From: a virus
Lineage: Duplodnaviria; Caudoviricetes
Virus record (IMG/VR): IMGVR_UViG_3300005330_000014
Coordinates: 64,001-128,000 of that record
Reading direction: 5' to 3' (one strand)
DNA length: 64,000 nt
Shown: piece after piece, positions 36,120 through 59,240 of the stretch
Layout of the letters: each line of letters starts with the position of its first letter
How positions within the stretch are numbered: the first letter of the stretch is position 1
Position numbers and translations under genes: made by a program
Notes under the pieces: generated by a model
Told to the model about the DNA's origin: nothing
Seen by the model: the letters and a program-made list of their open reading frames with translations, nothing else
The model's database searches: none

Positions 36120-36506
36120 TTAAAGTAACACTCCTTGTTTAATTTTCGGCTTCAAGGTAAACATATCGGTTAATGGATGATTGTGAGCTTTTGGTTCTCT
36201 GGAGTATCCGCAATAACTTATTTTAAATTCTTCCAGCACCGACTTAATTTCTTCTACTTGTGCAGGCGTGGCATTAAAACTATGACCTATAGATTGGTTA
36301 CTACTCCCTATTATATAAATAACCCGTGAAAGCTTATCGACTTCCACGGTGCAAGATCGCCAAATTTGCCAACCTTTAGTTGTAGCACATACGCACCCAT
36401 GAGGAATACGATCATCTTGTTTACAAATTTCTAATCTGTATCTCGTATCTCCAACCACAGGAAATATTTTATATTCAAAAACAAATTTAGACATTTGGTT
36501 GTTCAA
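36120..36506 (-). CDS. hypothetical protein with C-terminal HNHPLTDMF tag
   Basis: ORF track; motif at 36159-36185. Confidence 0.75.
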   Translation of the reverse strand: MNNQMSKFVFEYKIFPVVGDTRYRLEICKQDDRIPHGCVCATTKGWQIWRSCTVEVDKLSRVIYIIGSSNQSIGHSFNATPAQVEEIKSVLEEFKISYCGYSREPKAHNHPLTDMFTLKPKIKQGVLL

Positions 36507-36521
36507 TCAATTAACTAATGA

Positions 36522-36782
36522 CTAATCATTGTACTCAACTAATTCTCTATCAAATCGGCAAGGATCAGTAGCTAATTCTAATTCTTTAAACCAATTATCA
36601 TTACTAGAATCAGTTAATAATAAATGATCGTTTTGTTCCGGGCGGGAGGCGTAAATAGGATAAGCGCGGGCGGATATATTGCCACAAGGTAATTTAATAA
36701 CACTTAAATTGAATTCCGCGCGGTCGCCACGCATCCGAACGCGACGCGGCTTTTTAAGCAAGAAATCTAGAGTTAAATTCAT
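36522..36782 (-). CDS. hypothetical protein
   Basis: ORF track; co-oriented. Confidence 0.7.
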   Translation of the reverse strand: MNLTLDFLLKKPRRVRMRGDRAEFNLSVIKLPCGNISARAYPIYASRPEQNDHLLLTDSSNDNWFKELELATDPCRFDRELVEYND

Positions 36783-36916
36783 TTATTTTTATTCTTTTTC
36801 TTTAATTCTTTCCACTTCAAATACCAAGCTAATTGCCCGGTTAAGCAGTACATTAATGCGTAAAATAGTTTCATAAATAATTAGTGTATTTCAATTTAAA
36901 TATAATTTAGTTTTGT

Positions 36917-37936
36917 TCAAGAATAACTGGCACTTGCGCCGCCGCCGCCGAAACTTCCGCCGCCAGCTTCGATACTAGAGCCGCCGCCGGGGATATTAAA
37001 AGAACTGTTATCATCATTATCTCTGCTCGATCCGCCTAAATTAAACGGAATAGGAACAGGAATATAAGTAGTACTGGTGCTATCGCGGTTGTCATCATCT
37101 TGACGACGCCGACGATTATCACGATATCTATCATTATTATTAACTTTCTTTCTCATTGGAATCGGCACAGGAACAGGCGCGATAACTGGACGACGAGATT
37201 TAGCAATTTTTTGAGTTACTCTAGTCACTGATTTTCTAGATGGACGAATAGAACTGAGAGGGAGAGAATCGGGGCGCGACGGCACAAAAACAGGCACTCC
37301 CTCATACACCCTAGACTCTTTAATTTCTTCTTTCTTTTTAAATACTATTCGATAAGCCAAATAACCAAAAACCCCCAAACAAATCACTACTAAAAATATA
37401 CCTAATGGGTTGCCAGCGTCTTCCGTTTTATTGATTTTAATAACATCCGCCCGAACTAACTGTTTATTGATTTCTGAAATTCCAGATTCCAATCCGGCGG
37501 CATACTGCTTCTGAGCAAATTTCGGAATAATTTGATTATTGAGAATTTGTTTTAATCGAATATCTGGCAAAACAGCTTCGTTTCCGTAACCCGTTTCAAA
37601 CCGTAACTTTTTGACATCAGGAAACCAAAATAAAACTAATCCATTACTCGTTTGTTTTTGTCCGATTTTCCATGCATTGGCAATTCGATTAGTATAATCT
37701 TCCAAAGATGATTCTGTATCGTATTTTAGAATACTAATAACAAATTGAGGATGATTCGGGGCACTTTTTTCAAGATTAGCTAATTCTTCGTTCATTAGCG
37801 CGGCATCGTTCTGAGAAATAATACCTACCCGATCATCAAAATATTTAGTAGGCGCGGGCGGAATTGTTTCGCTGAATGCGTTAAATGCTGAACCAGCCAA
37901 AGCTAGCGCGCCGATAATAAGGGTGAATGTTTTCAT
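36917..37936 (-). CDS. TPM-domain membrane protein
   Basis: Signal peptide; YFDD.VGII...W.IGQK...NGLVL...RFETGYG.E..LPD; TM segment; GGGSFGGGGAS tail. Confidence 0.9.
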   Translation of the reverse strand: MKTFTLIIGALALAGSAFNAFSETIPPAPTKYFDDRVGIISQNDAALMNEELANLEKSAPNHPQFVISILKYDTESSLEDYTNRIANAWKIGQKQTSNGLVLFWFPDVKKLRFETGYGNEAVLPDIRLKQILNNQIIPKFAQKQYAAGLESGISEINKQLVRADVIKINKTEDAGNPLGIFLVVICLGVFGYLAYRIVFKKKEEIKESRVYEGVPVFVPSRPDSLPLSSIRPSRKSVTRVTQKIAKSRRPVIAPVPVPIPMRKKVNNNDRYRDNRRRRQDDDNRDSTSTTYIPVPIPFNLGGSSRDNDDNSSFNIPGGGSSIEAGGGSFGGGGASASYS

Positions 37937-37953
37937 ATTTATTATTGAGTTAT

Positions 37954-38136
37954 TTATTCATTGACAATTTTATCTAGTTGTTTTATTAATTCGAGCGCGT
38001 TAGAGTTGCACGTATTAGCATATGCTACCGAGTCCGCGTTTCTCGCTTCATCTTGTAAATGTTGAATTTGGCTTTTGATTATTTCCAATTGTGTTAATTT
38101 TAAAGCCGCACGGTTTATATCTAATGGTTCTGACAT
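37954..38136 (-). CDS. hypothetical protein
   Basis: ORF track; co-oriented. Confidence 0.6.
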   Translation of the reverse strand: MSEPLDINRAALKLTQLEIIKSQIQHLQDEARNADSVAYANTCNSNALELIKQLDKIVNE

Positions 38137-38155
38137 ATTATTACTTGGTTGTTGG

Positions 38156-39121
38156 TTATTTAACTACTTCTCTTGCTTCAAAATATTTATCGACATAATC
38201 AGTTTGCGGGGCTAAGAAAAATCCGTTTTCATCTCTTTTAGTTATTTTCGACATAACCGGAGAGAAATCTTGGATTCTTTTTAAATATTGTCTTTTATTA
38301 ATGTCGCCGTGCCAAAGATGATATAAATCTCCCTTTACATAGCCAATTTTTCCTTGAACTAAGTAATAAAATGCTTCTGACCATTCATTAATATAATCTA
38401 AGTTATCAGTAAATGCTTTAGTTACGCAAGGATGGGGAATTTGCCCAGCGGATGCGTGCGCGATTACGTGGTCCGCTCCACCTATTAACGCTCTATCATA
38501 AAGCGGAACACATTCTAAAATTTCGCGATGGGATGCCCAAGCAAATCCAACGTGCCCATGAATATCATAGTTTAAACTAATATGGTCGTTTCGAGATTGG
38601 TTATAGGTTGCACAAAAGCTTCTCCAGATTTTAGTCCCAATTCGTGGTTTGTCAACAACTGTTTTTGCCAAATTAACATCGAAATTTGGTTTAATTTCAT
38701 CTTGTTCCAAATGGATGCAAAACTCAAAAGGCTGAATAATGTTATTAACTTGTAACTGTTTAACTCCATCGGTCAGCCAATTCTTATTAGTAAATAAAAC
38801 GTCAGCATCCACCCAAAAGACGTATTTAAATTCGGGCGGCAAATCTTTAATTATTTTATTTAATAGTGTTTCTTTATGCCAAAGTAATCCTTCGGTGTAG
38901 ACAATCGTAATGTTTGGATCGTTATACTTACTTAATTGTGATTGCCCCGGCCCAATAACCAATTCAATAATTCTATGGTTAAGATGTTTAATACTTTGAT
39001 ACCATTTATCGAATACTTTGCGGCGATACTCTGAATTTTTTGGATTAAAGAAACAGCTAATAATAACAGCTTCTTTGTGAGACTGATATCGACCGAGAGC
39101 AGTATTAATCACATTTCGCAT
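38156..39121 (-). CDS. GT-A fold glycosyltransferase
   Basis: WHKE.LLN...YVFWVDAD (DxD)...GFAWA...IGGAD...HLWHG. Confidence 0.75.
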   Translation of the reverse strand: MRNVINTALGRYQSHKEAVIISCFFNPKNSEYRRKVFDKWYQSIKHLNHRIIELVIGPGQSQLSKYNDPNITIVYTEGLLWHKETLLNKIIKDLPPEFKYVFWVDADVLFTNKNWLTDGVKQLQVNNIIQPFEFCIHLEQDEIKPNFDVNLAKTVVDKPRIGTKIWRSFCATYNQSRNDHISLNYDIHGHVGFAWASHREILECVPLYDRALIGGADHVIAHASAGQIPHPCVTKAFTDNLDYINEWSEAFYYLVQGKIGYVKGDLYHLWHGDINKRQYLKRIQDFSPVMSKITKRDENGFFLAPQTDYVDKYFEAREVVK

Positions 39122-39216
39122 ATCTATTGATTATATAACCAAGATAATTCAAACAGTTATAAACTTTGGTATTTCTTTTAAATCTATTACGAAACAAAAG
39201 AATGTTTATACTTAAT

Positions 39217-39828
39217 TTAGTCAAATTTAACCACTGGCGCGGATTGGGCGGATTCATCGGCTTTAAAGAACGGTTTAGATTTAAAATTAAAGAATCCGGC
39301 GATTAAACTATTTGGAAATCCTACAATTACTTGATTGTATTTTTTAACTACTCCATTGTAATTGCGCCGCTCAACACTAATTCTATTTTCAGTTCCCTCT
39401 AATTCAATAGTTAAATTAGCATATTGCTGGGTGGCTTTTAGAGCAGGATAATTCTCAGTCACCATCATTAATCTACTAAGTGCTTGACTAATATTACCTT
39501 GTGCTTTTTCAAAGGACTGCAATTGTTCAGCGCTTTCGGGCGCTTTATTTTGTTGAATAGTTACTTGCCCAACGCTTGCTCTAGCCTTGGCAATATTAGT
39601 TAAAGTATCGCCTTCAAACTTGGCCGCGCCTTTAACAGTATTAACAAAATTAGGAATTAGATCATTACGTCGTTGATAGGTTGATTGCAAATTTCCCCAT
39701 TGTGCATCTACATTCACCGCTTCTTTATTAATTGTATTATATACTCCAAGTCCCCAGCTACCAATTCCGAATACGACGAACATGAGCAGGGCAACAAAGC
39801 CGCCGAAAATAAGTAATGCGAATTTCAT
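39217..39828 (-). CDS. lemA: LemA family protein
   Basis: YN......V...W......YQRR.DLIPN.V.TVKG...E...ENRI.VERR.YN. Confidence 0.93.
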   Translation of the reverse strand: MKFALLIFGGFVALLMFVVFGIGSWGLGVYNTINKEAVNVDAQWGNLQSTYQRRNDLIPNFVNTVKGAAKFEGDTLTNIAKARASVGQVTIQQNKAPESAEQLQSFEKAQGNISQALSRLMMVTENYPALKATQQYANLTIELEGTENRISVERRNYNGVVKKYNQVIVGFPNSLIAGFFNFKSKPFFKADESAQSAPVVKFD

Positions 39829-39885
39829 AATATGTATATGTTGTATTAGATTTAAGACTAGATCGTTAATTTAGCAAATTTCAAA

Positions 39886-40449
39886 TTACTTCTTAATTAA
39901 TTCGGATATTTTTTCAACAATAACAACCCGGGGCGCAACAAGTGCTTTAACGCCCAATTCAATACGAGGAAGAGTAAATTGAAAAAGGACTGGCCCGCAC
40001 ATTGCAAAAGTCATAATTGCCCCTATAATAACGCCGAAAGTATTAACATGCATATCAGTCCAAGCTTTTTCCTTAAGCTTATTTTCTGCCTGAATATTAT
40101 GAAGTAGTACATAAAGGCTAATAATAGCTAGAGTTAATCCAAAAATGCCCATTAATAGATTATCTACAATTTGCCATCTAATATAATCAGCAATAAATAA
40201 AGGAGTTTGTTCGCCTACCGTTTGCCCGGCTTTATTAAGCAGAGGCCCAACTGTTTTGCCGGTTTCGGATGCCGTGGCTTTTACCCAATTAGTTAAATCA
40301 ATAGCATTTTGCTTAAAGATTTCATCGACGGGAGATTTACTAGTTACTTCTGTGGTTGGAGTAGGTGTAGCCGCCGGGCCATCCGCGAAAGCAGAGATGG
40401 ACAGAGTGAGTGACAGAATTAAGATGGATGTTAGTTTATTTGTTTTCAT
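39886..40449 (-). CDS. membrane protein
   Basis: Signal peptide plus two TM segments. Confidence 0.75.
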   Translation of the reverse strand: MKTNKLTSILILSLTLSISAFADGPAATPTPTTEVTSKSPVDEIFKQNAIDLTNWVKATASETGKTVGPLLNKAGQTVGEQTPLFIADYIRWQIVDNLLMGIFGLTLAIISLYVLLHNIQAENKLKEKAWTDMHVNTFGVIIGAIMTFAMCGPVLFQFTLPRIELGVKALVAPRVVIVEKISELIKK

Positions 40450-40519
40450 ACTGATTACTTAATTACTTAGTTTTAGTTATTTGGTTTTTCTAGTTAGTTT
40501 AGTTTATTTCCTGAGATGA

Positions 40520-40746: not shown

Positions 40747-40841
40747 TTTGTTACTTAATGTTAGTTTTGGTTGTTTAGTTGGTTTCTTGATTATATACTG
40801 ATTGTCGGTGAATCTTCTATTACTATGCCAATTCATTAGTT

Positions 40842-41144: not shown

Positions 41145-41187
41145 AGTTTAGTGTATTATTTATTAATTGTTTCTTTCGTTTTTTTAG

Positions 41188-44476: not shown

Positions 44477-44905
44477 TTATTTAAAATCTTTCAATCGGGC
44501 AGCGGCTTCTTCTTCTGTTTTAAATCCGGTAAAATTTATAACTCTGTCGCTCAATCCAAAGCTTACTTCTAGAACATACTCTTGGGCTTGCGGGTTATAA
44601 AACATTTGGTTATTATATTTTTTAGCTAATTCGGCATTGAATTTTTTAAACTCTTTTTCTCGCGGATTAGGTTTTAGTTGTTTAAACTGAAAGAAATAGC
44701 CGTTTTTATTTTTACCAGATTTCACGCCATAAGAAGCCTGAGTTAATAACTTTTTACTGTAGGGATTTAAATCATCTAAATATATCAAAATTTCAGGGAG
44801 AAATCTAAGTAAACTTAACGAGTCAATTTGTTCATCACCAAACTTCATTGATTTGGCTATGGAACGTAAAATTTCTTCGCGGGTATAAGTTTTTTTCTTT
44901 GTCAT
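44477..44905 (-). CDS. hypothetical protein
   Basis: ORF track; inside the NAD module. Confidence 0.75.
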   Translation of the reverse strand: MTKKKTYTREEILRSIAKSMKFGDEQIDSLSLLRFLPEILIYLDDLNPYSKKLLTQASYGVKSGKNKNGYFFQFKQLKPNPREKEFKKFNAELAKKYNNQMFYNPQAQEYVLEVSFGLSDRVINFTGFKTEEEAAARLKDFK

Positions 44906-44909
44906 AAAA

Positions 44910-45797
44910 TCAAGCCACTTTAATCACATGAATTTTGTCTTGCGGGTAAGGATAAGGTAATTCTTGGAATGAATTAGTAGTATAAACTTCATCAATTACT
45001 TCAAGTATATCTTTATAACCCTTGGAAAAAATCCCGTGGGTAACATACAAAATAATCCGCCCGGCGTTCTTTTTCTTTAATACTTTTGCTAGTTCGATAA
45101 ACGTCCTAGCCCCGTCAGCAATGTCGTCGAGAATTACAACTGTTTGATAATTCAAATCATCTACATAAACAATTGTTTCAATAATTTTACCCGTTTGTAA
45201 TTCTCTTAACTTATCCGCGCGGATAAAGTGATCATGCCCAAAATGCGCGGCAATATCATGGATTTTTTTATTAGCTCCAACATCAGGAGAAATTAAAAGA
45301 CACTGTTTATTAAGTAAAAGCTTATAAAGTTCGTTTTCACGGTCATAAATTAGATTTTTAAGAATATCCAACCGTTTTACTTCCTTAAGATTATTAATTA
45401 CTGCATTAGTAACTTCCGAGTGGCAATCAAAAGTAGTAACGGACTCAAAGTTTAGAAAGTTTAAGTAATCAGCGAATACTTTTAAACTAAGACTTTCCCC
45501 CGGATTATGAGCTTTATCCTGCCGCCCATAAGGAATATAAGGTAAAATAAGATGAATGGGGACTTTTTTAACTCTTAAAATTGCATCGCGCATTAAAGCC
45601 AATGTAAATAAATCATTAGAATTTTGAATCCGCGCGGTTATATAAACTCCATCACGCCAAAAATAAGTACTTTTAATTGATTCTTCGTTTAATTGAATAC
45701 CAATTTCGCCGCCGGGGAATAACCATTGTTTAAAACCTAACTCTAGTCTTCCATTGTTAGTAGTAATTTTCATATTATTAATTATTTTCTTTATCAA
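44910..45797 (-). CDS. prs: ribose-phosphate pyrophosphokinase-like protein (Prs/Adps)
   Basis: FPGGE, PYIPYGRQDK, DCHS, SPDVGA, VVILDDIADGARTF, VTHGIFSKG. Confidence 0.9.
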   Translation of the reverse strand: MIKKIINNMKITTNNGRLELGFKQWLFPGGEIGIQLNEESIKSTYFWRDGVYITARIQNSNDLFTLALMRDAILRVKKVPIHLILPYIPYGRQDKAHNPGESLSLKVFADYLNFLNFESVTTFDCHSEVTNAVINNLKEVKRLDILKNLIYDRENELYKLLLNKQCLLISPDVGANKKIHDIAAHFGHDHFIRADKLRELQTGKIIETIVYVDDLNYQTVVILDDIADGARTFIELAKVLKKKNAGRIILYVTHGIFSKGYKDILEVIDEVYTTNSFQELPYPYPQDKIHVIKVA

Positions 45798-45955
45798 TTA
45801 ACTTTTCAATTATATCCTGCTTTTTATTAGGAATAACTCTATTGGGCGGGATTTTTTGTCCACGCCCTTTGACCCGGCGGATACGTTTAATTGTATCTTT
45901 TCTTTTTTGTTTATCCGCGCGGTTCATTTATTAGCAATATTTTTGAGCATTTAAA

Positions 45956-46669
45956 TTAAGCAACCATTTGCTTTACTTCTTCCAAAAATCTTTGGCTCAA
46001 TGCGTTAGTTTTATAAATCGCTTCGGGGTGCCATTGAACAAAATTAGCTCTGTGGTTTTCATTTTTAATCCATTCAATAATTTTAGGCAGTTTAAGGTCT
46101 TCTCCTAATAAAGCTGTACCTACAATTTCAACCCCATTAGGTAAATGATGTAACTCGCGTGTTAACGGGCGCAAAATACCCATATGGTGCGCGCTATTTA
46201 CGAAATAGTCTTCATGATCGACTTCCACGTAATGGCAAAATTCAGCTTCATCATCTTCTAGTTTAATCCCGGCCCCGCTAGGAGAATGACAAACCGTACT
46301 ACCGCCATAATTAATATCAGTTAGTGTCAATTTAAGGAAGTGAGAACAATATAATTGGAAATTACGACAAACGCCCGCGATTGGTTTGCCCAATTCAATG
46401 AACTTATTCATTAAGTAAATTTCACGAATGTCACGCTTACGATCAAAATTGTCCATATTTTCACATTTTAATAGTGGGCTGCCGTAAGTAGCGGGAAAAA
46501 TATCTCGTCCACCGCCGCCAAAATAAATATCCGCCCGCTCTGCCCAATAATCTAAATTGGCAGTATCGTCGTGAGTTACATATACATAATTCCAACCGAA
46601 ATACTTTTCAAGCATTTCATGAATATGTTTAGTGAAAATAGATGGACCGGTAGTTAGAGCGAGAGGCAT
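45956..46669 (-). CDS. class I glutamine amidotransferase, peptidase C26 family
   Basis: GGGRDI.P..YG, RD..E, GVCRNFQ, VNSAHH, QWHPE. Confidence 0.88.
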   Translation of the reverse strand: MPLALTTGPSIFTKHIHEMLEKYFGWNYVYVTHDDTANLDYWAERADIYFGGGGRDIFPATYGSPLLKCENMDNFDRKRDIREIYLMNKFIELGKPIAGVCRNFQLYCSHFLKLTLTDINYGGSTVCHSPSGAGIKLEDDEAEFCHYVEVDHEDYFVNSAHHMGILRPLTRELHHLPNGVEIVGTALLGEDLKLPKIIEWIKNENHRANFVQWHPEAIYKTNALSQRFLEEVKQMVA

Positions 46670-46752
46670 ATAATTTAATTGTATGGTTGTTGCAGTTAGC
46701 TATTTAGTTGATTTTAGTTTATGTATTTAGAGAGTTAGGAAAGAAAAGATAT

Positions 46753-47649
46753 TCATCCAGCGTATTCGATTAATTTAGCATGTTTTTCGATAAAGTCAAG
46801 GTTTTCTTTCGAGTCTTCATTTTCTAAATTAAATTTCACACGAATTTTAGATACCTCGCACAAAAATAGAGCCTTATAATTATTGTTATAATCTTCTAAG
46901 TAGAAATATTGTGCGCCTAAGTCATGCGAAAAATTATCTCTGATTTGATCGACATTAATAGACCAAATTTGTTTGATTAATTCAATGTTATGGGTATAAA
47001 GTATTGAAGCTCGATATTTTTGGATAAATTTCTCTGGCGAGGTATATAATAGATTGTGATTATACACACTTCCTCTTTGTCGCTCACCCTCCCAGCGGTA
47101 CTTGACTAAGCCAGTAATAAAACTAGTCATCGCAGGGCTACTAATATAAATCGCGGGGCCGGTTAAGTGAAAAGCCGCCCATTCTTTAGTTTTTTCATCA
47201 CTTGTAATTATTGCGGTATATTCGGGGAATTCTTTAAAAATTAAATCTTCTGAGCAATCTAACAGAGATTTTAATTCATTAAGACGCGCGATTTCACTTT
47301 TAATTCTATCAATTTCAGAAGTTTTACAACAAACTAAAATATTAAGCTTAGAATAATCTGGCTGGAAATCCGTGCGCGTCTGAAATCCTTTTTCGTAATA
47401 ATAGTGAAAACTTTTAAATATTTCGGGATTATAAAAAATTGCGTTAAAAATGCCACGGCAAGAACGCGGCCAAAAATTATCAGTTACATTATTGATATCC
47501 AACCACGAAAACAATACTGGATTATAATTAGAATTCAAGGGAAATGTAGATGAACGACGCGCCGGATTATACTTAGTTATATTGTCTGAGTCAGAAATGT
47601 AAACACCTTTGAAAGTTGATTCAATTTTCTTTTTTAATTCTTCGTCCAT
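46753..47649 (-). CDS. hypothetical protein, distant member of the CRxxF paralog family
   Basis: SCRGIF...SSPAMTSFITGLVK. Confidence 0.7.
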   Translation of the reverse strand: MDEELKKKIESTFKGVYISDSDNITKYNPARRSSTFPLNSNYNPVLFSWLDINNVTDNFWPRSCRGIFNAIFYNPEIFKSFHYYYEKGFQTRTDFQPDYSKLNILVCCKTSEIDRIKSEIARLNELKSLLDCSEDLIFKEFPEYTAIITSDEKTKEWAAFHLTGPAIYISSPAMTSFITGLVKYRWEGERQRGSVYNHNLLYTSPEKFIQKYRASILYTHNIELIKQIWSINVDQIRDNFSHDLGAQYFYLEDYNNNYKALFLCEVSKIRVKFNLENEDSKENLDFIEKHAKLIEYAG

Positions 47650-47751
47650 AATGATAAATGATTATATTAAGTTAATACTTAGTTATTTAGTTAAAGTTTT
47701 TGGAAGCCGCCGGATTCATTAGTAAAATAAACATCTTTGATGGAATAGTGA

Positions 47752-48147
47752 TTAGTTGAAATTGATTTCTTGGAACTCCCCATTTTTGTCTGTAGCAAAT
47801 ACTCTTTTAAAGTTTAACGAAGTAATAACACGGGCACAGAACTTGCATGGACTTGAAGTATTAATTTTTTCATTTCTATCTACTCTAACGACAGCCATTG
47901 TATAACCCGTGTAATCTTCTCTACGGCCACGCAATATTGCCATCAATTCAGCATGACAACCGCAATCTTCATAATAATTATATTCTATATTTTTAGGATG
48001 GCTTTGTTTCTTATTATGAGCCAGAGAAATCATTTTCCTCTTATTATAAATTGCGGCTACGTGGAAACAACGGCTATCCCCACGCATTTCGGGAGCTAAA
48101 GCTAATGCAATTTCTTTAAGTTTTTCAAGATTTTTAGGAGAATTCAT
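47752..48147 (-). CDS. cytidine/dCMP deaminase-fold Zn protein
   Basis: HAE...SSPCKFC. Confidence 0.85.
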   Translation of the reverse strand: MNSPKNLEKLKEIALALAPEMRGDSRCFHVAAIYNKRKMISLAHNKKQSHPKNIEYNYYEDCGCHAELMAILRGRREDYTGYTMAVVRVDRNEKINTSSPCKFCARVITSLNFKRVFATDKNGEFQEINFN

Positions 48148-48184
48148 TTTTATTTAGTGTAAATATATAACAACACTACTATTT

Positions 48185-49231
48185 ATGATAATATATACCA
48201 AAGAATTAGCAAATCAACTTGTAGAGCTACAGAAAAATGTATCTTTTAAGGAAGCAAGAAAAATTTTAAATATCAGTTACTATCAAGCTAGGAAATTATT
48301 AATAAAATTTGGATTTAAAACCGTTCAAAAAAATAAGCCTTTAATCCCCATTCAAGAAAATTACTTTGAAATTATTGATACCGAAGATAAAGCTTATTTT
48401 TTGGGATTTATAGGGGCAGATGGGTGTATTAATGATAAACACGCTTTATCTATTCACTTACAAAAAGACGATCAGATTATTCTAAAGCAGTTTTTGCATT
48501 ATACAAATAGCCAACATACTATTAAATTCGGAAAAACTAAGAACACAACCAGTTCTTTTCCTGATTTTTTTGAGTGGGCTATGATTTATATCTCTAGGAA
48601 AAATTTCGTACAACATTTATTACAATTGAATATTACCCCTCGTAAGAGTCTCACATTAATTCCTCCGCCAGAAAATAGCATTCCCAATCATTTAATGCAT
48701 CACTTTATAAGAGGTTACTTCGATGGAGATGGCGGGGCTTATTTCAATAGTAACAGTAAAAACATTAAAGGCAAAACTTTATATCAATTTAATGGCTCTT
48801 TCACGGGAACCAAGGAAATGTTAACTTATATTGAGTCGTATTTACATCAACAAGAAATAAAAACTTCTTGGACCAAAAGAATGAAAGATAATTCAAACAA
48901 TTATACTTTATTGATACATGGTAATATACAGGGAACTAAACTATACGAATATATGTATCAAAATCATACAATATGTTTAGACCGTAAATTAATTCTATTT
49001 AAAAAATGTAAAGATATAGCAGAATCAGTTATTAACAATAGAACAAGTAAATATAGATTTATTACAAAATATCCTTCCATTAAGTCTCCTTGGTCTTATC
49101 AATTTAAAATTAATAAAAAGAAATATAGCGGATATGGAGCAACCGAAGAAGAATGCAAAAAGAATCTTAATGCAAAGTATTTGGAAATATCTGGAATAAA
49201 TTTAGGAGAGGGGCTGCGTAGCTTAATTTAA
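48185..49231 (+). mobile_element. free-standing LAGLIDADG homing endonuclease with N-terminal HTH and C-terminal AP2-like segment
   Basis: KAYFLGFIGADG and HFIRGYFDGDG; opposite strand to all neighbours. Confidence 0.9.
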
Positions 49232-49233
49232 TA

Positions 49234-49494
49234 CTAAGAGTATTCCGAATCAGCCAATATTTCTTCATTTAGAAACTCTTCAATTTCCGGCGCTTTTTCA
49301 TCTATATACTTAATTATATCATTCCCTTCACTATCGCTCTGAGGCTCAACTCCTAATCTAGTTTCGCGGGCATCTACTACTTGAACAGCGGAAAGTAATG
49401 CCAGCCATCGTGACAATACTTTTGGTTTCTTCAAGATTTCTCTAGTTAATGTTTCTGCTTGTTGTGGAGAATAAGGTTTTTGATGCTTGCCCAT
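49234..49494 (-). CDS. hypothetical protein
   Basis: ORF track; co-oriented. Confidence 0.7.
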   Translation of the reverse strand: MGKHQKPYSPQQAETLTREILKKPKVLSRWLALLSAVQVVDARETRLGVEPQSDSEGNDIIKYIDEKAPEIEEFLNEEILADSEYS

Positions 49495-49590
49495 AATTAT
49501 AGATTTTTATGTTACTAAATGACCAATTAGTTAATTTATTAATTTAGTTAAGTTAAATCTTGGGATAGAACCAAGAAATTAGTTAATTTG

Positions 49591-49965
49591 TTAGACTAGT
49601 GTTTCGCCGTTTGCTTCCGCCGCAACGACAATACGGCCCAAAGCTACCTTTAAACCATTACGACGATTAAAGCAATCAGGTTTACCTTTTTTAGTAGTAG
49701 CTTTAGCAGTGGCTTTATATTCTTGTCCCGATTTACTAGTTACTTCAACTTGCGTAAATCCACCATGACTTAAAATAATCGGGCGGACTTCGGCAAGAGT
49801 AGGAGTTTTCAAAAATTCATTAAACTTACCATGTTTAATATGAACTAGTCTAGTAGTTAGAAGGCTCTTAACGTCCGCAGGGTTATGAGATACCCTTCGG
49901 AAGTGTGCGACTCTGACTTTATGACCAGCAGTTCTGAGTTGTTGTACTGTGATGTTATGTTTCAT
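49591..49965 (-). CDS. conserved phage hypothetical protein
   Basis: GG.T.V...DCFNRR.G.KVALGR pattern. Confidence 0.75.
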   Translation of the reverse strand: MKHNITVQQLRTAGHKVRVAHFRRVSHNPADVKSLLTTRLVHIKHGKFNEFLKTPTLAEVRPIILSHGGFTQVEVTSKSGQEYKATAKATTKKGKPDCFNRRNGLKVALGRIVVAAEANGETLV

Positions 49966-50022
49966 ATACTTATTATACTTATTGGTTTATTGGTTAGTTA
50001 CTTGGTTACTTGTTTGTTTTGT

Positions 50023-50880
50023 TTATTCTAGTGATTTTTCAAAATCTTCAACTACATGAGCAAATTTATTGAGTATTTTAGTTTGCATTTTAGGTGTAAG
50101 CAAAAAGAACGCGGAACTAAATTGACGATATTCTAAAGTGGTAAATCCTTTAGGTTCCTGCGAGTGATATTTCATTCGATAATCTCCTTTGACTGCAAAT
50201 TTAGTAGTTCTTAATTCCTCTTTTTCAGAAATGCCAGCGGGTAGACTTTCCGGGAAATAAGTATCATAAACTTTATCTAATTCTTTGATCAATTCATTAG
50301 TTTTGTCTGGTGCATAAATCCCTTCAAATATTTTTGAGGCAATTCTGTTGTCGCAAAATTTAATATGAATATGAAAGCCAGCCGAACGGAAAGTTACTTC
50401 CTTATTAGGTTTTTCGTATTTATACTTTGAATCAGGGGTTCTTTTACCCGTATAAGCATTATAAGTAGGCTTTTTACTGGAATAAACATTGCCCGGATCA
50501 ATAAATGAATATTCAGATTTATCTACATAAGGAGTTAATAAAGTTTCATAACCATACAAAGTAGTAAGATAATTACGCACAATTTTCAACCAATGATTTA
50601 GAGTATCTACAGCTAATCCCGATTTCATCGAAGCATGGCAAGCTATTTCTTTGCCAACAATTTCAAAAGCAGTCCCGTCCGCAATAATATTGAAAAGGTT
50701 GTTAGATTGCAGTACAGGATTAATATCCAAATCCATTGGCGCAAAGGGATTACCCTTATTTCCAAGTAACAATTTATCTGTTTGTAGATAATTCGCAATC
50801 AATTTAGTAGCATTGAATATCTGCTTTGGCTTTGAATTTGCCAAAAAGAATTCAATTTCAAATCCGTAGTTTAAGCTCAT
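50023..50880 (-). CDS. phiEco32-like COOH-NH2 ligase type 2 (divergent copy)
   Basis: GFEIEFF, DGTAFEI, RSAGFHIH, GDYR, LEYRQFS. Confidence 0.75.
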   Translation of the reverse strand: MSLNYGFEIEFFLANSKPKQIFNATKLIANYLQTDKLLLGNKGNPFAPMDLDINPVLQSNNLFNIIADGTAFEIVGKEIACHASMKSGLAVDTLNHWLKIVRNYLTTLYGYETLLTPYVDKSEYSFIDPGNVYSSKKPTYNAYTGKRTPDSKYKYEKPNKEVTFRSAGFHIHIKFCDNRIASKIFEGIYAPDKTNELIKELDKVYDTYFPESLPAGISEKEELRTTKFAVKGDYRMKYHSQEPKGFTTLEYRQFSSAFFLLTPKMQTKILNKFAHVVEDFEKSLE

Positions 50881-50902
50881 AATATGAATTAGTTAATTTG
50901 TT

Positions 50903-51520
50903 TTATTGGACAGTTTCTGTATCTACAGCAGTTTCAGGCGGCTTAATTAGCCATTTAGTTAAAGATAAAGTGTCGGTGGGTTTCTTTTTGAAATAATTAA
51001 CAAAACCTCCAGCCTCCCATCCGCCCACGCCTAACGATTTAACTGTTTGCACAGTATAACCATCCATAAAATGTAGGATTGCCGGAATTACTTGCCGCGC
51101 CAAATCATACGCCTCCAAAGCCGCTACAAAGTTATCATTTGCATTGGCATAATAAACAGCCGCCGCGCGGAGGAATAAAGTAAACATACCCCGACGAACG
51201 GCACTACTCGCCCAAAATGGGGAAATTTCCAAAATAATACAATTTACAACATTCGTATTATAAATAACAATTCTTTCCTCTTCAGGAATATTTAATTTAA
51301 TTTCGCGGTTTCTGAAAAACTTATCGATTTTTTCGATATCAATCCCAGTTTTATTAAATCCAACAAATCTGGTATTTTTATTGAAAGAATAACCAAAACT
51401 TTCCCGGCAAGTAAAACATGCTCCGCCCTGATTTGTTTTAATAGAATAAGTAAAGAAAGCTCCTTGATTATAACCGTATGGAGCCACTGATTTTAAATGT
51501 AACGTTTCTTTGGAAATCAT
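50903..51520 (-). CDS. CRxxF paralog family protein
   Basis: TCRESF...SPFW...FTLFLR...AI..F..G. Confidence 0.8.
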   Translation of the reverse strand: MISKETLHLKSVAPYGYNQGAFFTYSIKTNQGGACFTCRESFGYSFNKNTRFVGFNKTGIDIEKIDKFFRNREIKLNIPEEERIVIYNTNVVNCIILEISPFWASSAVRRGMFTLFLRAAAVYYANANDNFVAALEAYDLARQVIPAILHFMDGYTVQTVKSLGVGGWEAGGFVNYFKKKPTDTLSLTKWLIKPPETAVDTETVQ

Positions 51521-51589: not shown

Positions 51590-52255
51590 TTATTGATCAG
51601 TCGTTTTGCTTAAAAAAGCAGAGAAAATCTCCGGTAATCTATCACGGTTAGCACAATTAATTATTACATTACTAAATCTAGAAACAAACCTTGCTCCAGT
51701 TATCCCCATAGTATTTGGATCAAACGCCATTTTAGTAGGATGGATATTACCTTCCAAAAAGAACATGATTGCCGGGACTACTTGGGCGGCTAACGGATAA
51801 GCTTGTAACGCTTCCTCAAAATTTCCGCCGTGAGCCGTTTTTGGGTAGAAAATCGCCGCGCATCTCAAAAATAACGTAAATATTGCTTGAGTAATTATAT
51901 TCTGCATCCAGAACGGATCAATCTCCAAAACAATAAAATTAGGAATATCTGTTTTATAAATAACAATTTCTTGTATTTCAATTCCCGCTTTTCTCAATTT
52001 CGCCTCGCGGCGCATAAAAAACTGATTAACCTTTTTAATTCCTTCTTCTCCTAAATTTTTACTGTGCCATGCAATTCGTTTGATTTCTGGCTTTAAAAAT
52101 GAAGCAAAATTCTCGCGACAAGTGCATAAATGAATAATTCGACTATTATCATCCAGCATCATAAAATACCCGCCACTATAAGTATCTCCTTCCCGATTGA
52201 AGGTTTGGGCATAGTAACCATCATTAACTACTGGAATTACTTGGTCAGTTATCAT
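51590..52255 (-). CDS. CRxxF paralog family protein
   Basis: TCRENF...DPFW...FTLFLR...AI.FFLEG. Confidence 0.8.
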   Translation of the reverse strand: MITDQVIPVVNDGYYAQTFNREGDTYSGGYFMMLDDNSRIIHLCTCRENFASFLKPEIKRIAWHSKNLGEEGIKKVNQFFMRREAKLRKAGIEIQEIVIYKTDIPNFIVLEIDPFWMQNIITQAIFTLFLRCAAIFYPKTAHGGNFEEALQAYPLAAQVVPAIMFFLEGNIHPTKMAFDPNTMGITGARFVSRFSNVIINCANRDRLPEIFSAFLSKTTDQ

Positions 52256-52448: not shown

Positions 52449-52925
52449 TTACTTTAATTTGTCCACGCGGATTAATTCGGGATTTTCAAAAATATTCCCG
52501 ACAATCTCTAATCCCATATATTCAACTACCTCTTTCAATATTTCTTTAATTGATTGTTCGGGGTAAATCCCTGTTGCGTCATGTATTTTTTGTTTATAAC
52601 CAATAGCCGCGCGGCCAAGCATCAAACCAAATCCGCAAAAATACTTTTCTCCAGCTCCAAACTCACAACTTACATCGTCAAATTGAACAGGTGTTTTACC
52701 ATTTAAACCAACACCACATTCAGCATTACATTTAAGTAAATCGCCCTCATAAATCTCTTTATTGTTTTTATCTAGTAATCCAGTGAATTGTTGAATTACG
52801 AATTCTTCGTGTTGCTGACCGTTTGTGGTTAGTTGATATAACTCTTGGAAATCCGCAGGAAAGTACATTAACGAATTACCTTCATAATTATCAAAACACC
52901 AAACTCTAAATTTAATTGTTTTCAT
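52449..52925 (-). CDS. YopX-family protein
   Basis: IKFRVW...QFTGLLDKNNKEIYEGD...EIVGNIFENPEL. Confidence 0.9.
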   Translation of the reverse strand: MKTIKFRVWCFDNYEGNSLMYFPADFQELYQLTTNGQQHEEFVIQQFTGLLDKNNKEIYEGDLLKCNAECGVGLNGKTPVQFDDVSCEFGAGEKYFCGFGLMLGRAAIGYKQKIHDATGIYPEQSIKEILKEVVEYMGLEIVGNIFENPELIRVDKLK

Positions 52926-54538: not shown

Positions 54539-54624
54539 GATTTATTTTTTAGAATTTTTCGATTTCTTTTTGGGATTTATTTTACTCGATTAAATCAACG
54601 AACTTCACTCATCTATCTTATTTG

Positions 54625-55038
54625 CTAGCGTTTATTTTTAAATTCCTCAAACCATTTGTCTAGCTCAAGGATGCGTGGATAGACATACTCCAATTCAAAA
54701 CTAATCAATTTAGATTTTTTATCTCTAACGTCTTTTCTGATAGTTAAATATTCTAAATCTAAATCCATGCCCGCGAAATTAATATAATTAAGAGTTATAG
54801 GTGCGGCCATTAATAACTTTTGATATTCTAATGTGTTCCAATTTTTGGAATCTTGGTTGTAAGGCTTTAAAGTATTTTCTTGATATTTCTGATGGGCGGC
54901 ATTTTGTTTGCGGGCGTTATCCCAAAGCTCGAATAAATCAATTTCGGCAGCTTCCTTGGATTCGTATTCAAACGGCAGGGTATCCGTAGCTCCCCAAGTA
55001 TATTTATCACCTATTTCATATAAAAGGACTAGTTTCAT
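54625..55038 (-). CDS. hypothetical protein
   Basis: ORF track; co-oriented. Confidence 0.75.
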   Translation of the reverse strand: MKLVLLYEIGDKYTWGATDTLPFEYESKEAAEIDLFELWDNARKQNAAHQKYQENTLKPYNQDSKNWNTLEYQKLLMAAPITLNYINFAGMDLDLEYLTIRKDVRDKKSKLISFELEYVYPRILELDKWFEEFKNKR

Positions 55039-55068
55039 ATTAATTTTTAATTTGTGACAGAAATTCTA

Positions 55069-55389
55069 TTAATCTTTCAGTTTTTTTATTTTGTCGCTCG
55101 CAAACATATCTGTCAAAGGGTGATTATGTGTTCTATCTGATTTGTCTAAAATAATCATATTATTGTAAACATAATTTCTCATTTGGGCGTATTCTCTATC
55201 TGCGTCTCGATAAAAATATACTAAAGTTTTGCCGGTTGTACGACTCACGCTGGTAGATAAAATCTTAAAACCGCGCTCATTATTGTCCAGTAATAATTGA
55301 TAACTTCTAGGGCCGACTCCGATATCCCGCAAATCTTCTAGAGATAATGAAGGTTTAATCCTAAATTTTAATCCGGGTTTTAGGTTCAT
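55069..55389 (-). CDS. hypothetical protein with C-terminal HNHPLTDMF tag
   Basis: Motif at 55102-55128. Confidence 0.75.
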   Translation of the reverse strand: MNLKPGLKFRIKPSLSLEDLRDIGVGPRSYQLLLDNNERGFKILSTSVSRTTGKTLVYFYRDADREYAQMRNYVYNNMIILDKSDRTHNHPLTDMFASDKIKKLKD

Positions 55390-55397
55390 AAATAGGT

Positions 55398-55703
55398 TTA
55401 TAAAGATTTAGATTTTATGTAACTTAATTCATATCTAGGATGACCCACCGAGTAACGATTAAAACAACTGTAATTTGTGCCCGCATAGAACACAAACTGT
55501 AACCATATAATTTTGCCATTAGTTATTTTTGTAGGCAAGAAAGCAAATCTATAAAATCCCTGCGCGGCTTTATTTTCATCATTTAATCCGGTTTTACGAA
55601 AATGCTCAATTTGTTCACTTAATTTCCGAAAAACAGGAACAGCATTAAAATCAAACAATCGTAAAAACTGCGCGCGGCTTTTAATTTTAGATTGCTTTTT
55701 CAT
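55398..55703 (-). CDS. hypothetical protein
   Basis: ORF track; co-oriented. Confidence 0.7.
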   Translation of the reverse strand: MKKQSKIKSRAQFLRLFDFNAVPVFRKLSEQIEHFRKTGLNDENKAAQGFYRFAFLPTKITNGKIIWLQFVFYAGTNYSCFNRYSVGHPRYELSYIKSKSL

Positions 55704-55714
55704 ATATTTTAATT

Positions 55715-56449
55715 TTATTTAGCTATTTCAAAGGGTGCTGATTCTTCTATTTTCCAAAGATCGTGAACGGGACAAATTGTAGTAGAAGAATAATTTGACG
55801 AATATAAAAAATTAGTATTTGCCAGTTTCTGATTGAATTCTTCTTTGGTGATATTTCGCGCTCCATTAGCTTTAAATGTAATCATATGAGCAGAAGCCGC
55901 CGACCCAAAATCTTTAGAATAGCCTTGTATTAATTTATGAGCAGTTTGTAAAGCAATAAACTTATCAATTTTTTCTTCTTGTAGTAAGTTAACCTGCAAT
56001 AACTCAAAATAATTTTCGGGGACCAATAGAACGCCGGGCTCATACAAGGCGTGGATTAATTGAATAGTGGAGGTTAGAAGAAGTTTATATTTAAAATATT
56101 TTAACTCAATAGTAAAATAAGCATTATTTTTGTCGAAATGAACAGAGCATGGAAATCCCAATTCTGCGATTTCAGCAATCCACTTACTGATAGATTCTTC
56201 GCTATATGGAATTTTACTTAAGGGATGGCTTATTTCAATTTTTGAAGTTGTAAGATCAATCGGTCTTGATGTAAGAACATAAAAACAAATTTGTCCACTT
56301 GACTTATCCAATATAACTTCACCGTTTTCGTTAAATGTCTTATAAAAGACCGTAGACGTTATATTTTTTAATGACTCTAAAATTAGATAATTATAATTAC
56401 GCGGGGTTTCTACTGGACTAGGGGTTGGAGTGGAAATTGTCATATTCAT
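55715..56449 (-). CDS. hypothetical protein in the ligase cluster
   Basis: ORF track; possibly a distant member of the CRxxF family. Confidence 0.7.
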   Translation of the reverse strand: MNMTISTPTPSPVETPRNYNYLILESLKNITSTVFYKTFNENGEVILDKSSGQICFYVLTSRPIDLTTSKIEISHPLSKIPYSEESISKWIAEIAELGFPCSVHFDKNNAYFTIELKYFKYKLLLTSTIQLIHALYEPGVLLVPENYFELLQVNLLQEEKIDKFIALQTAHKLIQGYSKDFGSAASAHMITFKANGARNITKEEFNQKLANTNFLYSSNYSSTTICPVHDLWKIEESAPFEIAK

Positions 56450-56490
56450 ACCTCTTTTTACCTTATATTTATCTATAATAATTTTTAAGT

Positions 56491-57138
56491 TTAAGTTTCT
56501 TTATATAAATTCAACTTAATTTCGTCTTCTGTTTTGTTTCCAAACTGGGTAAATGGACCAGAATGCATTTCTGATTGTAACGTTCTAACGCTGGCTTCTG
56601 AAAATTTAGTATATCCATCTAAAAATAGTCTCATAAAATTCATCAACTGCGGACCATACTTTGATTTATTCATTGTTTCAAATATATCCCCGCCAACCAC
56701 ATGGTTTCTACCCCATCTTAATAAAATACCAAAAAGGGCACGTTTCATTTTTCCGTCTTCCGAATCTACCCACCACGGAGAAACACGCACCGCACTAATA
56801 GTAGTTCTAGTGGTCAAGTATAGTTTCGTTCGAGGATGAATATCCAAGAGCGTTTCAATTTGATTGATAAAATCAGCTATATTGGCCGTTAGATTCCCGG
56901 CATGAGCATATAATAGGGAATGCATTTTTTCGCCCCAAACGTTGCCGTGCTCTTCTAAACAATGAGCCCACGTATCATATTTATTAGCTAGCGTTTCATC
57001 GCTGCTTTTCCGGCTAGTACATTCACCTTTCAATCTATTAATTTTTGCTAAAGCAATAAATCCATCATTTGCGTCAGAGGTTTCATCGGGATTGACATCG
57101 TATCCCCAATTTTTTACTAATTTTAATTTTGCTGTCAT
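56491..57138 (-). CDS. CRxxF paralog family protein
   Basis: HCLEEH...SPWW...LFGILLR...LFLDGYTKF; start moved to MTAKLK. Confidence 0.75.
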   Translation of the reverse strand: MTAKLKLVKNWGYDVNPDETSDANDGFIALAKINRLKGECTSRKSSDETLANKYDTWAHCLEEHGNVWGEKMHSLLYAHAGNLTANIADFINQIETLLDIHPRTKLYLTTRTTISAVRVSPWWVDSEDGKMKRALFGILLRWGRNHVVGGDIFETMNKSKYGPQLMNFMRLFLDGYTKFSEASVRTLQSEMHSGPFTQFGNKTEDEIKLNLYKET

Positions 57139-57172
57139 TTTATTCTTATTTAGTTTAGGTTTTAGTTTAAGT

Positions 57173-58117
57173 TTAACTTCCTTCCAATAGATCGATAACC
57201 TTTTGCTTATATTCAAACGTGCCTTTTTCGCAAATAGAAACTTCTATACTTTTTCTAATCATTTTCCCGTCTCCTTCAACCAGACGTTTCATTAGTTCGG
57301 GTCGAAACTGATAACTATCCACGGCGGCATTATAATAATAAGAGGCAATTTTAAAATTGGGTTTAAATAACAAATTATGTAACGCTACGATTCCTCCGCC
57401 GTGCGAAGTAGTAGATAAACCATTGACTGGCATTTCTTCTTTAGTGTAATTATCTTCAATCGGATTCCTAAAGAATGTTTTATAATTATATTTTTTAAAA
57501 AGATTAATCATTCTAAGTAAAGCCGCCGAATATTCTTTATCACAAGATTTATCTACAGGTAAGTCGCCAGATATGACTTTCTTTAGAGTTTCTTGATAAT
57601 TCGTCCCAGCTTGGTGGGCCGGAGACACTCTAATTAGATTTAGATATAAGGCCAACATAGGCAATGCGCGCAGCCACTCGTTAGACCCAACTAAAATAAA
57701 ATATTGATTTTGACTAGTATCTTTTGTCGTGTTTTTGATTAAAAACTCCTGAGAAAGAGGTATCGCCAAGTCTTGTTCAATTTGATTTAAGAAATCTTTG
57801 ATTAAAGATACTAATATATTAATTTCAATATTCTGGTGTTTGTTAGGTATAACAATTAATAGCCTTAAATATTTTGGAATCTTACCGCCGCCCTTAAAAG
57901 CGTCCCAAACATTATCGTTAAAATAATCCTTACACCCTGTAATACCATTATATAATATACGATTATTTTCTGAAAGCCAGCAGAAAGTGATATGTCCTTG
58001 ATCGTAATGGGTAGGAACTTCTATTTTAATTAAACACGGATCAACATCGGAATTGTCTATCTCCGTGATAGGCGCGGCGGCTTCATATTTATATTTAATA
58101 GTTTTAGTTTGTAACAT
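57173..58117 (-). CDS. CRxxF paralog family protein (long form)
   Basis: GCKDYFND...SNEW...LYLNLIR. Confidence 0.75.
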   Translation of the reverse strand: MLQTKTIKYKYEAAAPITEIDNSDVDPCLIKIEVPTHYDQGHITFCWLSENNRILYNGITGCKDYFNDNVWDAFKGGGKIPKYLRLLIVIPNKHQNIEINILVSLIKDFLNQIEQDLAIPLSQEFLIKNTTKDTSQNQYFILVGSNEWLRALPMLALYLNLIRVSPAHQAGTNYQETLKKVISGDLPVDKSCDKEYSAALLRMINLFKKYNYKTFFRNPIEDNYTKEEMPVNGLSTTSHGGGIVALHNLLFKPNFKIASYYYNAAVDSYQFRPELMKRLVEGDGKMIRKSIEVSICEKGTFEYKQKVIDLLEGS

Positions 58118-58182
58118 ATTTTACTGATTAAAAAACTTACTTATAAGCTATTATTAATTCTTATTATTTATTGCTTATTTAT

Positions 58183-58902
58183 TTATTTTGTTAGATAGAC
58201 CGAAGGCTTTTCCCTTTTAGGTTTGGAATAAACATAATCCCCAATTTCTCTATCATAACGTCCAGTTTCAGCCCCTTCTCCATTAAAAAATGAAACCCAC
58301 CCGTAAAAATTACGAATATATTGTTTTTTTAATTTTGTATACCCTGATAAAAATAATTCAACCGCCTCTCTAGTCATAGCAAAGTATGGTTCGGCAAATA
58401 AAGCGATATTAATAGGGTCTTTAAGATTACTGTTATATCTAGTCCCGGCACGTAATAAGATTGTCAAAAAATTAAATCTTAATTTGTCATTCCACCATTT
58501 AGAAAGAATAACTAAACAGTACTTTGGGCGCACAGGTTTAAATTGTAACTTCTGGCTACTTGTTAGCTTCAGTTTTTTCTCAATTAGATCAATAAATTTA
58601 ATTAGGCCCGAATAACTATCTCCATGAGAGAAAAGAAATTGGGTTTTAATTACCCCGGAATAATCACTGATAACATCATGAAATGATTCTCTACAAGACT
58701 CGACACAATCAATATTCACACAATTATATTGAGTATACTGATCGGGAACAGATAAAATACCAAAACTACCTTTATAATGTAAATCATCTTCCCCACATTC
58801 GGGATCAACGACAACGATTGGACGATTTTTGTCAAAAACAATTTTGTCGATAATTTTAAATTTAGATTTAGATTGTTTGGATTTTGTAGATTTAGTTTTC
58901 AT
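58183..58902 (-). CDS. CRxxF paralog family protein
   Basis: SCRESF...SKWW...FLTILLR...LFLSGYTKL. Confidence 0.8.
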   Translation of the reverse strand: MKTKSTKSKQSKSKFKIIDKIVFDKNRPIVVVDPECGEDDLHYKGSFGILSVPDQYTQYNCVNIDCVESCRESFHDVISDYSGVIKTQFLFSHGDSYSGLIKFIDLIEKKLKLTSSQKLQFKPVRPKYCLVILSKWWNDKLRFNFLTILLRAGTRYNSNLKDPINIALFAEPYFAMTREAVELFLSGYTKLKKQYIRNFYGWVSFFNGEGAETGRYDREIGDYVYSKPKREKPSVYLTK

Positions 58903-58925
58903 GACAATTAACAGTAATAGTGAAT

Positions 58926-59240
58926 TTATTTAGGGATAACCAAAGTAAACATTGTTGTTAAGGGGTGATTATGGTCTTTTAAAGTTTTTTGTTTAGTTTT
59001 GGCTGGCTGGACATGTTGCGAAAGTATAGTAATATAATGATTGTCATAATAAAAATCAAGGTATCCGCCGACTCTGCTTATATAATCAATACGGAATACT
59101 TCTCCGCTCTCAAATATTTCTTTTGCTAGCTCTAGATTTAAACCATTGTATTCAGCTAAATTTTCAATGATTTCTTCCGGCAGGCGATTAATGGTAATGA
59201 AATCCCCGCGTTCTAATTTTTGAAATTCAGCTAATTCCAT
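58926..59240 (-). CDS. hypothetical protein with C-terminal HNHPLTTMF tag
   Basis: Motif at 58947-58973. Confidence 0.75.
   Translation of the reverse strand: MELAEFQKLERGDFITINRLPEEIIENLAEYNGLNLELAKEIFESGEVFRIDYISRVGGYLDFYYDNHYITILSQHVQPAKTKQKTLKDHNHPLTTMFTLVIPK

Follow-up and report, generated by a model that had tools for sequence, protein, structure and literature searches.

The capsid targeting sequence (CTS) of bacteriophage T4 is an N-terminal peptide that is removed by the prohead protease gp21. Encapsulin cargo peptides and the HK97 protease's C-terminal tail are C-terminal peptides of ~10 residues that follow a linker and bring their cargo to one HK97-fold shell. Beta-clamp motifs conform to Q-phi-x-[LM]-[FL], mostly within acidic flanks, and the internal motif of Escherichia coli Pol III alpha reads QADMF (PMC11139829). 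Here, we analyzed a 64,000-nucleotide stretch (hereafter, the window), corresponding to bases 64001-128000 of the IMG/VR record IMGVR_UViG_3300005330_000014, a 208,233-bp genome (34.8% GC, ~95% complete) of an uncultured rhizosphere phage, in which three small proteins share a nine-residue peptide, HNHPLTxMF, close to their C-termini. We consider it probable, although well short of certain, that this tag is a short linear recognition peptide, read in trans, on fast-evolving small proteins.

The three open reading frames (ORFs) that an earlier sequence-only reading had listed as sharing the motif are all present on the minus strand, and each carries it. Carrier 1 (36120..36494; 124 aa from an ATG, or 128 aa from a TTG start at 36506), the body of which we refer to as class B, has the tag HNHPLTDMF at 36159..36185; carrier 2 (55069..55389; 106 aa) has the same nonapeptide at 55102..55128; and carrier 3 (58926..59240; 104 aa), which has an acidic body, has HNHPLTTMF at 58947..58973. 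Between the tag and the stop lie 12, 10, and 6 residues, respectively, and not the 6 to 8 first described. Pfam and PHROG scans of the three proteins returned no family match. A six-frame scan of the whole genome enlarged the set to 7 in-frame copies, the additional carriers being located at genome positions 133636-134052 (-), 180050-180346 (+), 180351-680 (+), and 186656-186901 (+). All 7 copies sit in small ORFs (81-138 aa), 3-44 residues before the C-terminus, whereas the number expected per proteome from amino-acid composition is 2.6e-7.

Related phages from metagenomes add at least 8 further carriers. Six of these (P0008-P0013) lie on JGI and Logan metagenome contigs and were recovered by a word-indexed profile search of 5.8 billion proteins; locus L015 encodes three carriers in tandem (HNHPLTDMF, YNHPLTDLF, and HNHPLTDLF), and locus L026 encodes one (HKHPLTDLF), the overall consensus being [HY]-[NK]-H-P-L-T-x-[MLI]-F. 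The canonical tag is restricted to one small clade of AT-rich (~29-35% GC) rhizosphere phages, because neither an exhaustive profile search nor DNA pattern scans gave any other true carrier; the sequencing runs that hold this DNA are rhizosphere metagenomes, with no RNA run among those listed. Specifically, an exhaustive HMMER search of 1.84 billion representative sequences with a 32-position profile of the tag region yielded 12 proteins at E <= 1e-3, all from this phage or its relatives, with no bacterial protein among the matches. At the DNA level, both the strict and the relaxed pattern had 0 matches in IMG/VR, and the 8 strict-pattern matches in JGI contigs were set aside as chance, 7 being out of frame and 1 lying in a 38-aa ORF of a contig with 49% GC. 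No close relative was found in phage collections by DNA or in IMG/VR by the DnaE protein, and tblastn against cultured phages recovered distant ClpP and DnaE homologues only. A search of PDB sequences with the tag profile gave no match, and a literature search found no mention of HNHPLT.

Selection acts at the level of the peptide. Across 15 DNA instances of the tag (7 from this phage and 8 from its relatives), compared at the eight fixed residues, identity amounts to 94% at codon positions 1 and 2 versus 59% at position 3 and 35% in the 60-nt flanks, and synonymous codons are varied, with 4 in use for Pro, 4 for Leu, and 3 for Thr. The argument, made initially from the window alone, that DNA differing at synonymous positions implies a selected peptide is thus upheld. 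This pattern, in which codon positions 1 and 2 are kept while position 3 and the flanks vary, excludes an element that acts as DNA, e.g., a promoter, terminator, or recombination site.

The bodies that bear the tag are, for the most part, not demonstrably homologous. All-against-all BLAST of the 7 bodies from this phage, with the tag removed, detected no pairwise similarity. An N-terminal h-K-x-G-x-x-F-K-h-K pattern is common to eight carriers, and for 6 of those eight, namely carrier 2 (genome 119069), P0010, P0012, P0013, and two in L015, a family, denoted class A, was validated by searching leave-one-out hidden Markov models (HMMs) of the bodies against 370 ORFs, each member ranking first with E from 1e-9 to 0.07 (1.7e-9 for carrier 2). 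Among the same 370 ORFs, the class A HMM detects none of the other six carriers of this phage, nor P0009, P0011, or the L026 carrier. Consequently, carrier 2 is the sole member of this demonstrable, SH3-like family in its own genome, and six of the seven bodies have no BLAST or HMM relationship. Carrier 1 had been described as not obviously related in its body to carriers 2 and 3, which holds at the sequence level; the bodies of carriers 2 and 3 are likewise without demonstrable relation to each other (E 0.34, not significant, for carrier 3 against class A), so that the three proteins are not full-length homologs as far as sequence comparison can tell.

Structure prediction gave a usable model for one of the body classes. 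With the class A alignment as input, AlphaFold2 predicts a small barrel, with residues 1-81 at pLDDT 80-86, that resembles SH3, Tudor, KOW, and MIB/HERC2-type domains in a generic manner (Foldseek E >= 0.08, VIA Z <= 6.9). The tag (residues 88-96) has a pLDDT of ~50 in this model and is not packed on the body. The class B model, built from carrier 1 and P0011, is poor (pLDDT 47), with a long helix at residues 77-95 preceding a low-confidence tag region, and the ESM Atlas models of two carriers (pLDDT 0.39) were too poor for use. Judging from the one usable model, that of class A, the peptide probably lies outside the fold, in a flexible tail.

Comparison of genome neighborhoods shows that the bodies turn over around a constant tag. 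At every conserved position, the body diverges faster than its neighbors (19-36% identity between positional orthologues versus 36-70% for flanking genes), and the tag stays identical at 8-9 of 9 residues; together with the codon statistics, this describes a peptide conserved in a non-conserved context. The gene for a DnaE-type polymerase is preceded by two carriers in this phage and by one in L026, the ORF of which overlaps the dnaE start by 4 nt; the polymerases are 60% identical, whereas the L026 body is unrelated to either of its counterparts and cannot be aligned with them (20-23%). Similarly, one carrier of this phage overlaps the start of a ClpP-like gene by 4 nt and P0009 lies directly upstream of ClpP on a 13-kb JGI contig, with ClpP 70% and the bodies 26% identical; L026 and L027, by contrast, have ClpP directly after Thy1 and no carrier in between. 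Upstream of an operon of GATase_4-like genes, the carrier at genome position 133636 and P0008 share 25% identity in their bodies, compared with 47-54% for the neighbors. Carrier 1 is flanked on one side by a gene for a TPM-domain membrane protein together with an 86-aa ORF and on the other by an RNA ligase gene, and P0011 (L012; tag HNHPLTDIF) has the same gene order, with a body identity of 36% versus 56% for the neighbors. Carrier 2 and P0013 (L015) both follow a conserved 74/101-aa ORF within a cluster encoding COOH-NH2 ligase, C26 peptidase, and GGACT proteins; the 101-aa ORF (55398..55703, minus strand) is immediately upstream of carrier 2 and is 44% identical to the ORF at the same position in L015. 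The neighbors of carrier 3 are a GGACT cyclotransferase gene and, on its other side, a member of an amplified family of unassigned function. Both carriers 2 and 3 are embedded in an amidoligase/peptidase cluster, part of which spans 59282..62372 on the minus strand (Pfam: GGACT, 59282-59689; Peptidase_C26, 60283-60945; COOH-NH2 ligase, 61410-62372), and a similar cluster surrounds the three tandem carriers in L015.

Several features of the carriers and their surroundings deserve a separate description. Three carriers from different body classes (genome 133636-134052, minus strand; P0010; and P0011) have a long extension after the tag, with a low-complexity linker, then an acidic amphipathic helix, and finally an h-h-W end (EALPW, DDIIW, and ETILW). 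This extension resembles SSB-type acidic tails with an aromatic last residue and may be a second docking motif. Four BLAST-linked paralogues of 205-239 aa with a conserved SPFW…R..F..LLR.G core are encoded on the minus strand of the window (50903-51520, 51590-52255, 56491-57138, and 58183-58902), the last two between carriers 2 and 3; the two members scanned have no Pfam match, and a homologue adjoins the carriers in L015. In the seemingly intergenic stretch just upstream of the ClpP-linked carrier (genome 186233-186656, L008), another frame encodes a peptide, …LLGSIFFAAGTIINMLKN, resembling the last residues of an L027 frame, apparently the Thy1 ORF, that stops shortly before ClpP. An ORF for an HNH endonuclease lies just ahead of this stretch. 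The thyX gene may be split or interrupted in this phage.

The earlier suggestion that diverse cargo bears a common address or docking tag is supported by the lack, one small family apart, of a BLAST or HMM relationship among the bodies, by the position of the tag outside the folded core in the one usable model, and by the turnover of the bodies; its more specific version, docking to a sliding clamp, is not, as discussed below. In the mechanism we favor, the tag would be displayed on a mildly basic, flexible tail at the C-terminal end of small globular bodies that evolve fast and would remain invariant since all carriers need to be recognized in trans by one common partner. We infer that the reader would be one protein with a pocket that takes the Leu, Met, and Phe side chains, His-x-His-Pro conferring specificity. 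The clade specificity of the tag makes a phage-encoded reader, or a clade-specific surface, more likely than a universal host hub. On the address-tag reading, the tag unites ~2% of the genes of a 208-kb phage, all of them ORFans, as one functional set.

A number of observations weigh against this interpretation. Body and tag are separated by short linkers of about 3-10 residues and there is a single confident structure model, and hence the tag might, in some carriers, touch the body that bears it. The profile search did not return the variants HKHPLTDLF and YNHPLTDLF; therefore, the restriction to one clade holds for the canonical form only, and diverged forms may exist elsewhere. The single hub protein proposed as the reader is a candidate partner only, and it is conceivable, with something under one chance in three, that the tag is read by something we have not yet considered. 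Finally, several carriers resemble one another loosely in an N-terminal G-x-x-[FY]-K-h pattern and in a central aromatic pair, a likeness to which we return below.

A more ambitious version of the address-tag interpretation, which we put forward only tentatively, is that of a phage cargo-addressing system, in which the tag would steer rapidly diversifying small effectors, possibly those involved in anti-defense or host takeover, to a single phage machine. This machine could be the procapsid, with co-injection of the cargo, or a phage protease, with its timed removal, and new effectors would enter the system by gaining the tag.

That all carriers instead form one extremely diverged paralogous family of small beta-barrels, linked by very remote common ancestry, is suggested by the loose sequence likeness just mentioned but appears unlikely. 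The conserved tail would then be a functional or structural element of the family itself, e.g., a His/His/Met metal site or an intramolecular cap. Six carriers are proven relatives, three carriers lie in tandem in L015, and the similar overall lengths of the carriers and their short linkers would fit such an origin. Nevertheless, the class A HMM misses the other bodies among the 370 ORFs, the length of the body ahead of the tag ranges from 51 to 112 residues, the tag is unpacked on the body in the class A model, and the topology of the class B model differs in its long helix (residues 77-95), albeit at low confidence.

Comparably improbable, in our view, is that the tag serves virion loading by docking hypervariable small proteins to the procapsid interior or to a scaffold for co-injection. 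An invariant short tag on hypervariable small cargo is the pattern of T4 internal-protein loci, and the C-terminal position after a short linker matches that of encapsulin cargo peptides. The lineage of this phage has a long tape-measure gene and a capsid protein like Mu gpT; this major capsid protein has the HK97 fold, and the only recognizable candidate for a head protease is the ClpP-like gene located 3' of a carrier. However, no carrier resides in the head module, all being encoded alongside genes for replication and metabolism in early or middle operons; the carriers are not uniformly basic (pI 5.3-9.9); and members of the ClpP family are widespread next to genes of nucleotide metabolism in phages lacking the tag.

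The same ClpP-like gene is central to another reading that we regard as having an equally low probability, in which the ClpP-like or a trypsin-like enzyme, both of which are encoded by the phage, would use the tag as a degron or as a site for specific cleavage (…M-F↓small residue), providing for the timed removal or processing of an early protein set. The ClpP-like protein retains the Ser-His-Asp triad, its gene follows a carrier both here and next to P0009, and the conservation of the tag is site-like, with a strict non-prime side, a variable position two before Phe, and a small or beta-branched residue after it. Yet L026 and L027 have no carrier between Thy1 and ClpP, no Clp-type unfoldase is encoded, and the tails after the tag can be as short as 1-3 residues, which makes their removal seem pointless. 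Nor does the tag resemble a degron of the ClpX/ClpA (ssrA-like) type, which occupies the extreme C-terminus with a free carboxylate, as 1-52 residues follow the tag. The predicted complex of 3 copies of the ClpP-like protein (58-row alignment) with the adjacent carrier (15-row alignment) scored 0.02 against a mark of 0.32, which gives no answer either way. The protease itself (200 aa; genome 186898-187500, L008:7899-8501, plus strand) is equally distant from cellular ClpP and from ClpP-related head-maturation proteases and is one of a family that numbers >1,300 proteins from large uncultured phages, usually encoded beside dUTPase, ThyX, ThyA, or dCMP deaminase and not beside head genes.

The sliding-clamp proposal of the sequence-only reading fares slightly worse still; here, the hydrophobic pocket of the host's beta clamp would take up the tag, and the small proteins would be recruited to the replisome or compete there. 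The N-x-x-L-x-x-M-F spacing resembles a PIP box, and the likeness to the tail of the RB69 polymerase that had been invoked found no confirmation in the literature searched. The phage encodes a DnaE polymerase, with carriers directly 5' of its gene in two phages, and presumably uses the clamp of its host; indeed, searches of the genome for DnaN, gp45, PCNA, and a clamp loader (DNA_pol3_delta2) gave no match, so that any clamp involved would be that of the host. The D-M-F end of the tag coincides with the last three residues of the E. coli alpha motif QADMF (PMC11139829). The agreement is confined to these three positions: when the L-T-D-M-F segment is aligned on the terminal Phe, the last two positions of the clamp motif are matched in all instances (Met, Leu, or Ile, followed by Phe), but position 1 is Leu instead of Gln in 15 of 15 instances and position 2 is an invariant Thr instead of an aliphatic residue. 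The invariant H-N-H-P is left unexplained by clamp docking. Moreover, the 12 residues upstream of the tag have a mean net charge of +1.0, and most carriers also have a net positive charge downstream of it (a comparable stretch of the small ORFs of this phage averages +0.09), unlike the mostly acidic flanks, or free C-terminus, of known clamp motifs. The DnaE polymerase and a DnaQ-like exonuclease of the phage lack the tag, half of the carriers are found in a cluster unrelated to replication (amidoligase), and the absence of any bacterial protein among the profile matches also speaks against a host clamp as the partner.

Two observations concern the replication genes themselves. Within the DnaE-type polymerase (genome 180726-184142, L008:1727-5143, plus strand), a block of 18 residues, SKLSFECLLFSKLKDKEK, is unchanged in a relative with only 60% overall identity; because its estimated position is approximately that of the internal clamp-binding motif of E. 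coli alpha, this block is a candidate non-canonical clamp site. An AAA+ ORF of 325 aa was considered as a clamp loader and rejected, since its PHROG match is weak (31 bits) and it looks RuvB-like. It is encoded in a GC-rich island of this AT-rich phage (genome ~44500-51000, L003:8500-15000), which has overlapping long ORFs on both strands with Ala/Arg-rich products.

There is a rather small probability that the tag is recognized by the enzymes of the amidoligase/peptidase cluster (COOH-NH2 ligase, C26 peptidases, GGACT, and GATase-II-like proteins) and that the tagged proteins are substrates for covalent modification. About half of all carriers lie in amidoligase/GATase clusters, including 3 of the 7 in this phage, which are in or at the edge of a cluster of ~24 kb, and at least 5 in its relatives, and, in two phages, the gene immediately after a carrier is GATase_4-like. 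Much of this clustering is accounted for by tandem duplication of class A, though, and other carriers are found beside dnaE, ClpP, and RNA ligase; the tag itself offers no obvious acceptor residue, its sole acidic position being variable (D/N/T). As for the GATase_4-like proteins, which are of the class II amidotransferase/Ntn-like kind, three paralogues are encoded on the minus strand (genome 128057-129133, 129469-130308, and 132629-133492) in an operon that begins with a tag carrier, and the operon order is the same in L010.

It is even harder to credit that the tag acts as an Hsp70 handle, mimicking the D-I/M-F of the J-protein G/F region (Cajo et al. 2006, as cited in PMC3486835, for the DIF motif of DnaJ) and thereby coupling the carriers to host DnaK/DnaJ. 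In L028, a distant relative with a 49% identical ClpP, a full-length DnaJ is encoded three genes downstream of ClpP (L028:2385-3506, plus strand), and its G/F region, F-N-H-P-F-R-D-M-F-G-G, fits the tag at 6 of 8 positions (N-H-P-x-x-D-M-F); one carrier, P0011, has an exact D-I-F. This is a single post-hoc coincidence, however: no other DnaJ among 5.8 billion proteins has the FNHPFRDMFGG segment, D-[IM]-F is common in G/F regions anyway, and the tagged phage encodes neither a J-domain protein nor Hsp70. A translation-arrest peptide is likewise unlikely, because the distance from the tag to the stop (1-52 codons) and that to the next gene (from a 4-nt overlap to a gap of 143 nt) are not fixed.

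Elsewhere in the genome, five scattered paralogues (window 29353-29820 and 52449-52925, minus strand; genome 157380-157820, 176212-176613, and 197366-197803, plus strand) resemble the YopX family in their sequence pattern (KFRVW…IQQFTG…IYEGDI…GNI.ENPELL). A LAGLIDADG homing-endonuclease-like ORF (window 48185-49231, plus strand) lies on the opposite strand within a block of minus-strand genes.

Returning to the address-tag interpretation, shared docking tags show which proteins of an otherwise unannotatable phage work through one machine, and the nine-residue peptide provides an experimental handle on that machine; the narrow distribution, within one uncultured rhizosphere clade, limits the general impact. 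Were the reader to prove to be the capsid or a protease, the peptide would constitute a portable tag for loading or destabilizing proteins and a C-terminal counterpart, in an unrelated lineage, of the T4 CTS.

How does the tag compare with the systems outlined at the outset? With beta-clamp motifs and PIP boxes, it shares the short hydrophobic plug ending in [LM]-F, a probably disordered tail, and the occurrence on several unrelated proteins that would converge on one hub, but it has four extra invariant residues, H-N-H-P, and neither the Gln nor the aliphatic second residue; its flanks are basic rather than acidic, and it belongs to a phage without a clamp and with an untagged polymerase. The encapsulin cargo peptides and the HK97 protease tail resemble it in their C-terminal position after a linker, although they have no sequence similarity to the tag, and the capsid protein of this phage is a candidate receptor only. 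In contrast to the T4 CTS, the tag is C-terminal in all carriers and thus does not have the N-terminal placement of a CTS cleavage site, and the carrier genes lie in replication and metabolic operons. What the tag and the T4 CTS have in common is the underlying arrangement, in which scattered, small, hypervariable phage proteins bear one short peptide that stays invariant while the cargo turns over.

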